Shown: piece after piece, positions 19,077 through 24,322 of the stretch | Layout of the letters: the number at the start of each line of letters is the position of its first letter | Numbering within the stretch: the stretch's first letter is position 1 | Assembly (NCBI GenBank): GCA_964392785.1 | Contig: CAYMRH010000005.1 | Span: 4,778 to 68,777, forward strand | Direction of reading: 5' to 3' | Length of the DNA: 64,000 nt | Origin: an uncultured Brevinematales bacterium | GTDB taxonomy: Bacteria; Spirochaetota; Brevinematia; Brevinematales; JAOACQ01 | The notes under the pieces: model-generated | The model's database searches: none | The model's input: the letters and a program-made list of their open reading frames with translations, nothing else | What the model was told of the DNA's origin: nothing | Made by a program: the position numbers and the translations under genes

Positions 19077-21731
19077 TTATTCCTCGAAGCGTTCGATCAC
19101 CAGTTCCACGTAGGCGCGGGACAGTTTCAGGCTCTTGGAAATGTCCTCCACCGTCCAACCCTGTTCCTTCAGGCGCAGGATGTTCTTGGCGGTGTCTTCG
19201 TCGTTCGCTCGTTCCGCGGCGGCCGTCCGTTTGGGGCCCAGTTGCCCCTCCTGGGTTTCGCGCACGCGCTCGAGCTGGGTTTCCAGCTTGGCCACCCATT
19301 CGCGCATCTTCTGGACTTTCTTGGATTCCTCGTCAATGTGGATGAGCAGGTTCTCGATGTCCGCGATCTTGTCCACCGCCACGCCGATGCGGTCCTGGTC
19401 GCTGAACAGCCGGGAAATGTTGGACTGGGCCGTCTTGACGTCCTCTTCCACCTTGCGGGAGATCTTGTTCATGGTGGTGACCTTCTCCTCGATCAGGGCC
19501 ACCTTTTCGTCCATGACCTTGATGTCGTCGCGGGAGGAGTCCACGGAGTTGATCAGGCTGTTGATGATGTCCCGCTTCTTTTCCGCGTCCGCGATCCTTT
19601 CCTTGATCTCTTCGTAGATCTTGAGCGTTTCCAGCAGCACGGCCTTCACGTCCTCCACCTTGCCGGACTGCTTGTCGATGATGGACAGGATTTCCTGGGC
19701 GTCCTTGACCTTGTCCAGGGCGGCTTTGGCGGTTTCGTGTATGGCCAGCGTTTCCTTGCGGGAGGCGGCGATATTCAGCAGGAGCCCGTCCAGCGCCTTG
19801 TGCTCGGTTTTGACGGTGTCCAGGCTCTTCATGGCTTTTTCGATGTCTTTTTTCCGGTCTTCCAGTTCCTTCAAAAACTGCGTGATCATCTTCACGTTCT
19901 TGCCGGACTTTTCCGTGAGCGTTTCGGCCTTGTCCAGGATGGCGCTTTTTTTGACCAGGCCGTCGTATCGGGTCTCGATTTCCTTGGTGCGTTTGTTCAG
20001 GTCCTTCAGGTCGGACAGCACCTGCTCCTTGAGCTCCTTTTTCTCCGCCGCCACGTCGCGCTGGATGGCCTGCAGGTCCGCTTTGGCGTTGTCCAGAGTG
20101 TTTTCCAGTTCTTCCTCCGTCTTTTTGACGTAGCCGTCAAAATTGTTGGTGATTTCGTTCACGCGCTTGGTGAATTCCGTGTCCAGGGAAGCCGCCCGGT
20201 CCTGGATGGACGCCGCGGCCTCTTCTTCGATCTGCTTGAACTGGCGCGTCAGTTCCCGGATCTTTGCGGCCACGCTTTCGTATTCCGCGGCCGACGCGGC
20301 CACGTATTTTTCAAATTCCTTGCTGAATTTTTCCTGGAATTCCGAGAGCTCCTCGTTCAGGCGCTCCTCGCTTTCCGAAGCGGCCCGCGCGGCGATTTTC
20401 CGGAATTCCTCCTCCAGGTCCTCCAGCCGGCCGGTGTGGGTCTTGTAGAATTTCTCCAGTTCCTTCTCCCGGGCCGCCATGGCGCTTTCCAGCTCCTTTT
20501 CCCGGGCGGCGGCCGCGGAGGCCAGGGATTTTTCCCCGGCGGCAATGGAGGCGGAAAGCGATTTCTCCTGGGACGCGATGGCGTTCTCCAGTTCCTTCAT
20601 GCGGCGGGTTTCGTCCGTCAGGTCTTTTTTCAGGTCGGACAGGCCCGTTTTGAGTTCGTCGATCTCCCCGAGGGCGCTTTCCTTCACTTTTTCCACGGTG
20701 GCGCGGATGGTGTTCCTGAGGTTTTCTATTCCGTATTCTTCCTTTTCCATGAGTTCCTTGGTGGTCTGGTCGAACTTTTTGCCGATGATGTCGCGGATGT
20801 TGTCCATTTTTTCCTGCGCGTCGTCCAGGCTGTCTTCCAGGGCTTTTTCCTTGTCCTGGATCTTGCGGACCACGGCGTCCAGCGACTCGCGGCCCACGGT
20901 CTTGATGTCGTCCACGGCCTGGGAGAGGTCTCCCTGCAGCTTCTGGATCATGGTCTGGAGGGATTCTTCTTTTTTGGCCACGGAAGCGACGAATTTCTCC
21001 GCTTCGTTTCCGGCGCCGGCCTTGACGGACGCCAGTTCGGACTTGAACTTGTCGGTCACGTCCTTGATGAATTTCCCGAGCCGGGCGTTCATGTCCTGGA
21101 GCGCGCCGGAATGGGCCGTGATCTTGTTCTGGAGCGAGTCCACGGCCGCCTGCTTTTTGGAGATGTCCTCCTGCAGGGCGCGGATCTGGTCGGCGGACTC
21201 GCTTTTCTGGAGCGCGATGTCGTCCAGGGTCTTTTTCATGGCGTCGTGGATGTTGTCCTCGGCCCAGACCTTGGACTGGTCAATGTCCGACTGGATCTGC
21301 CTGGCGTCCTTCTGGGCGTCCGCGATCTCCTTTTTCAGGGCGTCCACTTCCGTGGCGGCTTTGGAGATTTCCAGGAGCTTGGTCCGGACCTCCGCCATGT
21401 TGCGGTTGAAGTCCGCCGCTTCCCGGAGCTCGCCCGTCAGGGCCTGGCGGATGGCCGTGATCTGCTTGATGCTCCCGCCGATCTCCCCCATTTTGTTGTT
21501 GATGAAGGCGCTGGCCTTGTCCAGTTTTTTGAGGGCGATGTCCAGGGAAATGGTCTTGTCGCGCAGTTCCTTTTCTTTTTCCTGGAACAGGCGGTTCAGG
21601 TTCGAGACGGACGTGTTGATGAAATTCTTCAGCGTCTGCAGCTGGGTGTTGCGCTTGTCGCGCCGGCGGAAGAAGAGGATCAGGAAAACGGATATGAGGA
21701 TGGGCAGGACGATGCTGACAAAATTGACCAT
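19077..21731 (-). CDS. Membrane-anchored long coiled-coil protein (SpiroCoCo-like) with C-terminal HTH-like tail
   Basis: N-terminal TM helix, ~800 aa heptad-rich E/K/L/Q region, tail LKEQGWTVEDISKSLKLSRAYVELV. Confidence 0.75.
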   Translation of the reverse strand: MVNFVSIVLPILISVFLILFFRRRDKRNTQLQTLKNFINTSVSNLNRLFQEKEKELRDKTISLDIALKKLDKASAFINNKMGEIGGSIKQITAIRQALTGELREAADFNRNMAEVRTKLLEISKAATEVDALKKEIADAQKDARQIQSDIDQSKVWAEDNIHDAMKKTLDDIALQKSESADQIRALQEDISKKQAAVDSLQNKITAHSGALQDMNARLGKFIKDVTDKFKSELASVKAGAGNEAEKFVASVAKKEESLQTMIQKLQGDLSQAVDDIKTVGRESLDAVVRKIQDKEKALEDSLDDAQEKMDNIRDIIGKKFDQTTKELMEKEEYGIENLRNTIRATVEKVKESALGEIDELKTGLSDLKKDLTDETRRMKELENAIASQEKSLSASIAAGEKSLASAAAAREKELESAMAAREKELEKFYKTHTGRLEDLEEEFRKIAARAASESEERLNEELSEFQEKFSKEFEKYVAASAAEYESVAAKIRELTRQFKQIEEEAAASIQDRAASLDTEFTKRVNEITNNFDGYVKKTEEELENTLDNAKADLQAIQRDVAAEKKELKEQVLSDLKDLNKRTKEIETRYDGLVKKSAILDKAETLTEKSGKNVKMITQFLKELEDRKKDIEKAMKSLDTVKTEHKALDGLLLNIAASRKETLAIHETAKAALDKVKDAQEILSIIDKQSGKVEDVKAVLLETLKIYEEIKERIADAEKKRDIINSLINSVDSSRDDIKVMDEKVALIEEKVTTMNKISRKVEEDVKTAQSNISRLFSDQDRIGVAVDKIADIENLLIHIDEESKKVQKMREWVAKLETQLERVRETQEGQLGPKRTAAAERANDEDTAKNILRLKEQGWTVEDISKSLKLSRAYVELVIERFEE

Positions 21732-21822
21732 GACCCCCTCCGGTTATGACAACGACATTTTAAGGAAAAGGAAGCGGGAAAGCAATAGAAAACGGGGGAA
21801 AATGGGGATTTTCAGGAGGAAG

Positions 21823-21988
21823 CCGCGGAGGCGCGGAGAACGCCAGGGGCCGTCATGCCGCGGCGCTTCGCGGCATACTGAATTTTCCCGGTGTTTCTTC
21901 GTGGCTTTGTGGCGGCGCCTGCTCCGAGCGCCTCGACGGTTCGGCCATGCTCAACGCAGGCTCTGCTCGGGACAGGCTCTGTCGAGGG
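21823..21988. repeat. Cluster of palindromic mini-repeats (left flank of AT-rich gene)
   Basis: CGCGGAG-periodic unit; GTCATGCCGCG..CGCGGCAT hairpin (21852-21876); CCTCGAC (21931)...GTCGAGG (21981) enclosing TTCGGC.GCTCA..CTCGGG. Confidence 0.7.
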
Positions 21989-22017
21989 TTATCAGGTGTT
22001 TGCCATAACTGTGCACA

Positions 22018-22965
22018 TCATTCCCTTATCTTTCTAAGTCTGAAAAGTGCATACAGCTTTTTGAAATTTGGTTTATCATAATCTCCTTTTATGACAACCC
22101 AACGAAAATATATATCGCCCTCCGGTTTTACGATGAAGCTTCTGATTTTAAAACCAGTAATGTATGGCGCAATATTTGCAATAGCAGGAATATCATTTAT
22201 GGTAATCAATCTGTATTCATCGTTCTTATAAACATTATGCTCGGCGTCCTCTTGGAAATCCGAAAGATATTTATTCTTAAATTTTAAAACAATATCCTTG
22301 GTCTTCTCATCTTCAATAGAATATTCTTTATAATTAGTATTAACCAAATTATATATATATGTAACATTTCCATCACCGAATAAAATTTCAGACTTATTTT
22401 TATCAAAATTGAAGTAACCATAGGTTGAAAACCAGCCCTTATTAAAGATTTGAAAGTTTGTGTTTTTTGTAAATTTGACAAGATTTCCCAGCGGAATCCA
22501 AGCGTTGCCTTCATCGTCAACATCAAAACTATATGGGTAGTGAAATATTCCACTATTTTCACTATATAAAAAATTGCTGGTCTTAACCATAGGCTCCAGA
22601 ACATACTCATATCCATTCGGCAATCTGCCAATATAAAGCCTTTCGCCCACATTAAAACTGTCTACAAAATTATATATATTGTTATAATAGACATCCCTTG
22701 TTTTCCAGGTACGACCCGAGCCCACCCCTTTCTCCCATTGTTCGTTATAAATCCTGAATTCCCTTTTCCCTTCGAACTTCTGAACCTCGCTGCTTTTTAC
22801 ACTTGTTAATATCTTTTTATCTCCAAGCGCTTTATAAACCTTGATCGCCTCATCCGTCGTCAGCTCTTCCTTGGGCAACTTTAATAGCACGGACAAATCG
22901 CGCTCTTCAGCGCTCCAGGCGTTGACGCAAATCAGCAGGAGTAAAATGGCGGTCATTCTGGTCAT
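22018..22965 (-). CDS. Secreted hypothetical protein, AT-rich
   Basis: Signal peptide MTRMTAILLLLICVNAWSA; body about 30% GC by spot counts. Confidence 0.75.
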   Translation of the reverse strand: MTRMTAILLLLICVNAWSAEERDLSVLLKLPKEELTTDEAIKVYKALGDKKILTSVKSSEVQKFEGKREFRIYNEQWEKGVGSGRTWKTRDVYYNNIYNFVDSFNVGERLYIGRLPNGYEYVLEPMVKTSNFLYSENSGIFHYPYSFDVDDEGNAWIPLGNLVKFTKNTNFQIFNKGWFSTYGYFNFDKNKSEILFGDGNVTYIYNLVNTNYKEYSIEDEKTKDIVLKFKNKYLSDFQEDAEHNVYKNDEYRLITINDIPAIANIAPYITGFKIRSFIVKPEGDIYFRWVVIKGDYDKPNFKKLYALFRLRKIRE

Positions 22966-23010
22966 AACATGCCCCCTTTTTGGCAGTAGATTGGGTTTTA
23001 TGTGCTTTTG

Positions 23011-23287
23011 CCCGGCCCTTCGATACACGGCCCGGTGGCTGAGTGCCCAGCTCCTGCGTGCAGGGGCTGGGTGTATCGAAGCCCGGGCCGCACACAGCCA
23101 CCGGGATTTTGCAGCGGCCTCGACTTCGGCCCCTCGGTAGTGCTGCTGGACGAGGAAGCCGTAAACCCGTTCGGCTGAGCTCAGGGCATCGCTCGGGGAC
23201 CGAAGTCTCGGCCGAACCGGTCGTCGAGTTCACCGCTCCCTGCTTTGCCGGACTACCGAGACGCCGGTGAGGCCGAAGTTGAGGCCG
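23011..23287. repeat. Cluster of nested and interleaved REP-like palindromes
   Basis: CTTCGATACAC/GTGTATCGAAG (23018/23071), CCCGGTGGCTG/CAGCCACCGGG (23031/23095), and triple-nested inverted repeat 23115-23287. Confidence 0.85.
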
Positions 23288-23530
23288 TCATTCACTTCTT
23301 CAAATAATATATCCTTTTCTTCTTCGCTTTCAATTTCAATTCTGCTTCATTCTCCTCTATCAGGGCTTTCTTCTTATCGTGACTCCAACCCTGAACCTGC
23401 TTCTCTCTTTTAAAAGCTGTCTTTATTGATTGATAATATTCCCAATAAACCAATTTTACCGGTCTTCGTTTCGCAGTATATCGGGCACCTCTGTCTTCAG
23501 AAGTTTCAACCCCTTTTCTAAAAACCAGCG

Positions 23531-23577
23531 CGGTCCCTGAGTGATTTTCCGCGTCAGCGGAAAATTGTATCGAAGGG
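23531..23577 (-). repeat. REP-like element inserted in frame in the GIY-YIG gene
   Basis: Minus strand CCCTTCGATACA-ATTTTCCGC-tgac-GCGGAAAAT-CACTCAGGGACCG. Confidence 0.85.
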
Positions 23578-23621
23578 CCGCCATTATGCTCCTCGAGACG
23601 TCTTTCCAAATCCCTGTCGGT

Positions 23622-23641
23622 CCCTGAGCGGAGTCGAAGGG
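23622..23641 (-). repeat. 20 nt REP-like element causing the GIY-YIG frameshift
   Basis: Minus strand CCCTTCGACTCCGCTCAGGG directly after codons YTG. Confidence 0.85.
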
Positions 23642-23760
23642 GCCCGTGTAATATGACCCGTCTGAGCATTCCACTATGTACATATACGGCATATCATCCT
23701 CTTACTAATTTTGTGCCGCCTGATCAAGCTTAAGTAGTTGGGAAAACCGCGGCCAAGCCG

Positions 23761-23864
23761 TCGCCCTGACGGTTCGACGAAAGCGGTTGGTGAGCCTGTC
23801 GAACCACACCGCGGCGGCCGTGTCGAAGGGTCGAAGCGGTCGAGGGGCGCTGCGTCTCCGTGGC
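23761..23864. repeat. Nested REP-like cluster upstream of the GIY-YIG gene
   Basis: CCCTGA (23764)...TGTCGAAGGG (23821) enclosing GGTTCGAC/GTCGAACC and GGTGAGCCTGTCGAACC. Confidence 0.8.
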
Positions 23865-23869
23865 AGCCA

Positions 23870-24322
23870 TCAAACCAGCCTGACGATCACCGCCACAAGT
23901 GCGCCCCACGCGCCGCCGGCAACCACTTCCAGGATGGAGTGTCCCTTGAACTGCGGGATGTTTTTGGGAACGGGGATGCGGTTCTTTTTGGCGAGCGCCC
24001 GGGTGAGGGTGATGTTGATCTCCACCGTCTTGCGGAGCTTGATGATGTCGTAGATCAGGATGCCGGCCATGACCACGGCCAGGCCAAAGAGCGAACTGGA
24101 AAAACCCGATTCCAGGCCAATGCCCACCGTCACGCCCGTGATGAAGGCGGTGTGCGCGGACGGGATGTCCCCGTAATCCGCGAACTTCCGGATGTCCGGC
24201 GGCTTGCCCCGGAACACGGGCAGGAAAATCTTGAAAACCTGGGACGACACCTGCGCGATGATCGCCGCCAAAAAGGGTTTGTTCAGGAGAACTTTGAATA
24301 CGTTGAAATCCGTGCCGTTCAT
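23870..24322 (-). CDS. Divergent PAP2 family (DUF212) membrane protein
   Basis: G.IPSAHTA, ILIYD...LR, GH...EVVAG. Confidence 0.85.
   Translation of the reverse strand: MNGTDFNVFKVLLNKPFLAAIIAQVSSQVFKIFLPVFRGKPPDIRKFADYGDIPSAHTAFITGVTVGIGLESGFSSSLFGLAVVMAGILIYDIIKLRKTVEINITLTRALAKKNRIPVPKNIPQFKGHSILEVVAGGAWGALVAVIVRLV

Follow-up and report, generated by a model that had tools for sequence, protein, structure and literature searches.

The target bound by SsnA of Neisseria meningitidis, a 94-residue GIY-YIG protein (CDD family cd10448), is NTS, a hairpin repeat with a defined orientation, immediately upstream of which the enzyme cleaves single-stranded DNA (Chenal et al. 2025, PMC11893778). 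SsnA is inactive on duplex DNA and on RNA, tolerates removal of the loop and extension of the stem, and is programmable in trans by split stems (PMC11893778). Here we describe repeat units that surround, and have entered, a small GIY-YIG nuclease gene in a 64-kb window (C5:4778-68777) of the draft genome G000 (2.46 Mb, 57.7% G+C, 94.5% complete). The nuclease clade of the window and its units look like a sister system to Ssn that may work in a similar manner. As in the Ssn/SRM pairs, hairpin repeats with a defined orientation stand on both sides of a small single-domain GIY-YIG gene and are also scattered elsewhere in tens to hundreds of copies, short fixed bases lie 5' and 3' of the hairpin, and the loop is dispensable and the stem extendable.

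The units also resemble the REP/REPIN-RAYT systems (Bertels and Rainey 2011, PMC3116915), in that dispersed hairpins flank one enzyme gene and doublets are common; unlike in those systems, the enzyme in the window is a GIY-YIG hydrolase, not a Y1 transposase, and the units are without the 5' GTAG. No earlier description of the core sequence defined below, or of a GIY-YIG gene with such repeats, was found in the searchable literature. Integron attC sites have conserved ends around a middle that is paired but free in sequence, and a tyrosine recombinase reads them in folded, single-stranded form; our units show the same architecture of ends and middle but differ in sequence and in the type of enzyme. 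Rickettsia also has palindromic elements, hairpin repeats that sit in frame within genes as some of the units described here do; the two bear no sequence relation. The small dispersed repeats of cyanobacteria described by Elhai et al. in 2008 are reportedly mobile, 21-27 nt long, and form compensated hairpins nested in themselves; no partner enzyme is said to have been proposed for them, an RNA intermediate being reportedly favoured. Compensated hairpins and self-nesting are shared with the present units, many of the cyanobacterial loci that we sampled carry the present core, and the two families may overlap. UPF0213/YhbQ-like GIY-YIG proteins, to which the nuclease of the window is similar, are very common and their structures have been solved; we know of no accepted function for them. 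A DNA partner conserved across phyla would make such a function directly testable.

A fixed junction separates two helices of free sequence

In the units, a fixed junction, TCGA / CTC, separates two complementary helices of free sequence, an outer P1 and an inner P2. P1 terminates in an N:N' pair (T:A or C:G) beside the asymmetric junction 5'-TCGA / CTC-3'. In the short form, P2 is shrunk to C-NNN-G and the core is closed as a loop by P1; many short-form stems have only three perfect pairs and are unstable without protein. The first-pass annotation had proposed recognition of constant ends plus a structure, a proposal that we retain in a narrower form: what is recognised would be a short fixed sequence in a sequence-free, compensated frame that comprises both helices.

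We examined P1 in a pool of 219 units from G000 and from 80 homologous loci. Positions 1-3 were Watson-Crick paired in 91-95% of the units, compared with 38-54% when partners were shuffled; more than 20 different complementary triplets were used, and many stems reached 6-10 bp. The outermost bases of the core also covary (T:A 70, C:G 21; 94/97 Watson-Crick). Since its terminal T and A covary, the core is invariant and unpaired only in 5'-TCGA(C) facing (G)CTC-3'.

Searching for the ends together with P1 near GIY-YIG homologues revealed long units of the form TTCGA-TAC(A)-[stem-loop]-(Y)A-CTCA, observed in Bacteroidota, Spirochaetota, Anaerolineales, Fibrobacterota, Cyclobacteriaceae and Alteromonas, along with the sister types TTCGA-CGC-[..]-TTG-CTCA and TTCGA-CTAC-[..]-TCCG-CTCA. 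For P2, a slice of a species-genome collection was scanned for TTCGATAC-N10-35-TACTCA only, which yielded 133 matches; in a database of that size most hits are due to chance. In the matches bearing a P1 of at least 3 bp (n = 40 unique), P2 positions 1-3 were paired in 93-100%, with G:C and C:G swapped in near-equal numbers, whereas in those without P1 (n = 59) the predicted P2 positions were paired in 22-34%, which is chance level. When 38 long units were aligned, with P1 but not P2 as a selection criterion, 85% of the cells paired and the covariation score was 0.883 against 0.249 in shuffles, a score reached by 0/500 of them; slid registers of the alignment scored 0.07-0.28. The covariation of collected copies, which the first-pass annotation had suggested examining, thus favours its observation, and extends to both helices. 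Since the arms covary, pairing takes place within one strand, as opposed to a duplex site for a protein dimer.

The 10-mer CTTCGATACA occurs at 23018-23027 (+), 23072-23081 (-) and 23566-23575 (-). With one mismatch allowed, it has 3 matches in the 64 kb against 2.4 expected, which is not above chance and would agree with a mere resemblance among GC-rich palindromes. This explanation is rejected by the two-ended pattern CCTTCGA...CTCAGGG, with 2 matches in the window (23535-23576 and 23622-23640, both -) against 0.05 expected, and by the core TTCGAC-N2-3-GCTCA, with 55 copies genome-wide, where six permuted controls gave 0-9 and the reversed pattern 0-1, as well as by the pairing of P2 and the covariation score of the long units; we regard its probability as negligible. 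About three-quarters of the 55 cores are closed by at least three perfect pairs, the sequence of which varies from copy to copy, and short-form copies are numerous in G000.

Units and nested units in the window

All three sequences quoted in the first-pass annotation are present in the 64-kb window where it had placed them. Its central claim, that constant ends enclose unrelated, compensated inner stems, depended on the existence of further copies with conserved ends and variable stems; these were found at C7:5023-5054, C7:5090-5132 and C12:3383-3425 and in many other phyla.

The long-form unit at 23029-23089 (-) has a P1 of GGCCCGG (23089-23083) and CCGGGCC (23035-23029) with a closing C:G pair. 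Its core comprises TTCGA (23080-23076) and TACA, followed on the other side of P2 by CA, CTCA (23043-23040) and G, while P2 itself (23071-23046) reads CCCAGCCCCTGC-ac-GCAGGAGCTGGG, with one C-A mismatch. This P2 family recurs at C7:5090-5132 and C12:3383-3425 with a compensated C-G to G-C swap, and the C-A mismatch is conserved in the P2 common to C5, C7 and C12. The whole unit lies within an outer one of opposite orientation at 23010-23105 (+), composed of CCCGG-cc-C-TTCGA(23019-23023)-TACA-C, the inner unit 23029-23089, and G-CA-CACA(23093-23096)-G-cca-CCGGG. The outer unit has CACA in place of CTCA (one mismatch), and its "P2" is the entire minus-strand unit. Accordingly, the 5' half CCCGG-x-CTTCGATACAC is found on both strands (23011-23028, +; 23089-23071, -), as is the 3' half CAC(T/A)CAGCCACCGGG (23091-23105, +; 23045-23031, -).

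Two crossing inverted-repeat pairs had been noted here and are indeed present (A, 23018-23028 / 23071-23081; B, 23031-23041 / 23095-23105, with 11 perfect bp). A plus-strand unit that encloses a minus-strand unit, which in turn encloses the hairpin 23046-23071, accounts for this A-B-A'-B' arrangement, so the pseudoknot-like topology proposed for 23011-23105 is replaced by inverted nesting of units. In the minimum-energy DNA fold predicted for 23010-23105, only pair A and the inner hairpin form (-28 to -30 kcal/mol; z = -2.7 and -4.1). Nesting is not confined to this site. P2 can be a complete unit, which makes the grammar recursive: in sphingomonads, long units of the form TTCGATAC-GGCAT-TTCGACTTCGCTCA-ATGCC-TACTCA have a short unit for P2, and unit-in-unit composites occur in G000 at C1, C3, C9, C27 and C28.

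Upstream of the nuclease gene, a short-form unit at 23788-23806 (-), tgg-TTCGACAGGCTCA-cca, is reverse-nested in a CGG-TTCGAC...CCG unit, and this composite recurs at C71:2491. A GC-rich block of degenerate sister modules (23115-23287) lies between the stop codon of the nuclease gene and the nested units. The adjoining gene at 22018-22965 (-), located between two repeat clusters, has 36% G+C, begins with a signal-peptide-like stretch and matches no Pfam family; from a promoter-like site at 23333-23306, the nested units would be transcribed as part of its 5' leader.

The nuclease gene and the distribution of its clade

The gene at 23292-23692 (-) encodes a small GIY-YIG nuclease (Pfam PF01541, 8e-13) of low G+C content, belonging to a UPF0213-like group that we term clade A. 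Among solved structures, its product is closest to the UPF0213 proteins 1zg2 (1e-16) and 1ywl, and homologues are about 60% identical. An intact clade-A paralogue is present in G000 at C71:6033-6335. Its frame is broken once, by a short unit after the codons for YYTG that adds a net 20 nt relative to the homologues; removing 20 nt restores YYTG-TDR-DLERR. This unit (23622-23641, -), ccc-TTCGACTCCGCTCA-ggg, had been described as a hairpin-less form and is in reality a hairpin; in this form a variable stem, of 3-10 bp among the copies, closes the core TTCGAC-NNN-GCTCA as its loop. Its sub-family (GGCCC...GGGACCGA) recurs at unrelated loci, and since the 3' arm GGGACCGA is thus found elsewhere, a small deletion of the target may have accompanied the insertion.

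A second, long-form unit at 23530-23581 (-) lies in frame in the same gene, where its 45 nt add PSIQFSADAENHSGT to the loop between EHNGG and GARYT. Specifically, P1 pairs GCGGCCC with GGG-a-CCGC, and encloses TTCGA (23574-23570), TACA, the P2 ATTTTCCGC-tgac-GCGGAAAAT (23565-23544), CA and CTCA (23541-23538); the predicted DNA fold has -15.2 kcal/mol (z = -3.5). The same surface loop independently holds units in two other lineages (three in all), in both orientations: a '+ -' pair of short units in the first and, in the second, a reverse-oriented long unit with a covaried C...G variant of the core. In many homologues the repeat is translated into a tail or an insert, for example SLSGVE and PELVEG, and such repeats would be a source of spurious peptide tails on predicted proteins. 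The copy of the gene in the window would be a horizontally acquired, low-G+C gene disabled by a 20-nt unit and carrying a second unit in frame.

To follow the clade beyond this genome, we sampled 80 homologous loci from at least ten phyla, covering Chloroflexota, Cyanobacteriota, Bacteroidota, Spirochaetota, Desulfobacterota, Gammaproteobacteria, Gemmatimonadota, Acidobacteriota, Actinomycetota, Fibrobacterota and Margulisbacteria. The exact core was found at 51/80 loci, in 164 copies located within ~500 bp of the gene and on both sides of it. Across 41 relatives, with clade-A genes called at E of at most 1e-30, at least 20 cores were present in 9/10 genomes with clade A and in 2/31 without it (Fisher p = 1.5e-6, uncorrected for relatedness). 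One of the two core-rich genomes scored as lacking clade A, G005, has a split clade-A gene. G011 has 30 cores and a weak nuclease match (6e-14), and G017 has clade-A genes and only 4 cores. Comparison with an empty site found no congener in the collection, and family-level relatives share just the downstream gene. Flanking of the nuclease gene on both sides, together with a repeat load that tracks the presence of the gene, is a trait that the window units have in common with Ssn-like repeats.

Some of the sampled loci show further particularities. At the Geobacter-like loci L027, L029, L209 and L210, a GGCCC-TTCGACTCCGCTCA-GGGACCGATTGA unit sub-family contributes the final codons and the stop codon of the gene lying upstream, and at L209 a type I restriction S-subunit (Methylase_S) gene lies downstream of the nuclease cassette. 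Within G000, a tandem array of variant units at C1:51400-51850, GCCGTTGCC-TGAGCGGAGCCGGA, with a period of ~23 nt and partly masked as N in the assembly, follows an intact clade-A gene.

The bracketing of nuclease genes by clusters could also arise if the repeats were landing sites, that is, if the nuclease were a homing-type selfish gene entering pre-existing clusters of other origin. The position of the gene inside repeat clusters, and the units being preferred targets of further insertion, agree with this. The reading is weakened by the arrangement at the gene, which is flanked by whole units or doublets and not by the two halves of a split unit; moreover, a unit sub-family travels with the gene across phyla, and no other candidate enzyme was found, Y1/RAYT being absent from G000 and uncorrelated. 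We therefore judge it unlikely. A nuclease gene inside one split unit, the signature of homing, was seen at none of the loci examined.

Being short, GC-rich, clustered and mostly intergenic palindromes, with a doublet between two genes on C7, the units might alternatively be taken for REP/BIME elements driven by a RAYT (an IS200/IS605-type Y1 transposase) or for intrinsic terminators. The Y1 transposase (PF01797) is, however, absent from the 94.5%-complete G000, and its presence does not follow unit number (p = 0.36, 41 genomes). No unit has a trailing T run, and none was called a terminator in 21700-24000. Both identities are very improbable. In an Alteromonas MAG (L066), the '+' and '-' units around the nuclease gene are two sub-families with unrelated P1 and P2; because the stems of this doublet are unrelated, its members cannot pair and form no single long REPIN hairpin. 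As for MITE traits, the terminal arms (P1) differ between copies and are not conserved inverted repeats. The two in-gene inserts, whose boundaries are ambiguous by 3 nt, show no target-site duplication.

Putative function of the units and comparison with Ssn-type pairs

Our preferred reading, held with moderate confidence, is that the units are the cognate single-strand DNA hairpin sites of clade-A GIY-YIG nucleases (UPF0213/YhbQ-like), which would constitute a second Ssn-like family. The first-pass annotation had envisaged either an enzyme or an RNA-binding protein; its first option agrees with the small GIY-YIG nuclease as a likely DNA enzyme, whereas the second finds little in its favour.

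A conserved internal loop between two helices that both covary is, it is true, what would be expected if the units were a structured RNA, such as a cis-regulatory element, a processing site or a small ribozyme, bound by an RNA-binding protein. Use of the promoter-like site at 23333-23306 would make the nested units part of the 5' leader of the AT-rich gene. In addition, stems with a single mismatch, read on the TTCGA strand, have 8 A-C against 2 G-T, which would give G-U pairs on the complementary strand; these are too few to be significant, and the bias favouring TGAG...TCGAA as the folding strand, to which the C-A mismatch conserved on C5, C7 and C12 also points, is a weak hint. The stems show no excess of G-T, with 2 G-T against 4 A-C among 200 pairs at P2 positions 1-5, and 9 G-T against 12 A-C at P1 positions 1-3. 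A search of Rfam 15 matched no unit, the only hit being U7 at E = 0.77, a chance-level value elsewhere in the region. Furthermore, units stand in both orientations around and inside genes and reading frames, only one member of a '+ -' doublet could be sense RNA, and the partner gene encodes a DNA nuclease. A role as RNA is accordingly quite improbable. Hammerhead, kink-turn, loop-E and T-loop junction readings, compared by eye, misfit the core and have no Rfam match.

If the units are nuclease sites in DNA, the analogy with SsnA and NTS suggests that a clade-A nuclease would bind the folded single-stranded unit, read the junction bases and the helical geometry but not the stem sequences, and nick in or near the motif. 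Whole hairpins would be copied to new places. Identical units at unrelated loci, in other units and in the nuclease gene itself suggest that nicks made by the nuclease seed this spread. GIY-YIG enzymes cut DNA by hydrolysis and lack joining activity, which leaves the pasting step without a known catalyst. More speculatively, and with considerable doubt, the unit could be a single-strand DNA element that is recursive and targets itself, and with its 20 nt perhaps the smallest mobile DNA known, with the nuclease cutting the TCGA/CTC junction and new units being laid there. Insertion at this junction would, if true, generate the Russian-doll grammar.

Several consequences would follow from the pairing of units with nucleases. 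With only the junction read and both helices free, the enzyme could be programmable in trans by split stems, as SsnA is, and would then represent a second, orthogonal family of guided single-strand DNA cutters; the design may give new sequence- and structure-specific single-stranded DNA tools. A 4-nt/3-nt fixed junction between free helices would also account for a type of GC-rich repeat that is scattered through many genomes, and Ssn would become one of several parallel nuclease-repeat pairs, with at least three side by side in G000.

We compared the units with the published SRM pattern, HGTCWY-N0-2-YYVSBRH-N0-5-WNVSBRG-N0-2-RNCYNB. It matches none of the window units and gives 26 matches genome-wide against 18-32 in shuffles. 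The sole two clear SRM matches in the genome, TGTCATACCCGCGAAAGCGGGTATCTCT and TGTCACTCCCGCGAAAGCGGGGTCTGT, flank the GIY-YIG gene C26:16913-17182 on both sides. In layout, the SRMs of G000 (GTCA-TAC..stem..TA-TCTC) resemble the window units (TCGA-TAC..stem..TA-CTC). Unlike in NTS, an additional outer helix encloses the fixed bases of the window units within an internal loop, and unlike in Ssn, the stems vary freely and the units nest recursively. The window nuclease also lies nearer to 1zg2/1ywl than to the Ssn-type genes of G000, with which its clade shares 36-40% identity. Given this identity and the UPF0213 affinity, we keep the window clade outside the published Ssn family.

Other GIY-YIG genes of the genome have repeats of their own. 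Clade-B genes are flanked by CCCCTCGTCTCCGCTCGGGG, and a third small GIY-YIG clade, represented by C71:1894-2172 and C9:12269-12547 (motif ...HNNDEDTRHYT...), is flanked by CCCCTCGTCTCCGCTCGGGGTGAC. That one genome has at least three nuclease clades with a separate motif for each speaks for cognate pairing. The CCCCTCGTCTCCGCTCGGGGTGAC repeat has the same design as the window units, with a TCGTC...GCTCG core. The region C26:16818-17285 is a bona fide Ssn-type locus, with NTS-like hairpins, TGTCA-(T/C)(A/T)CCCGCG-AAA-GCGGG..TCT, on either side. At C4:61424-61729, a second Ssn-like gene carries an in-frame TAA and is surrounded by a different repeat containing CGTCATTTCGATT.
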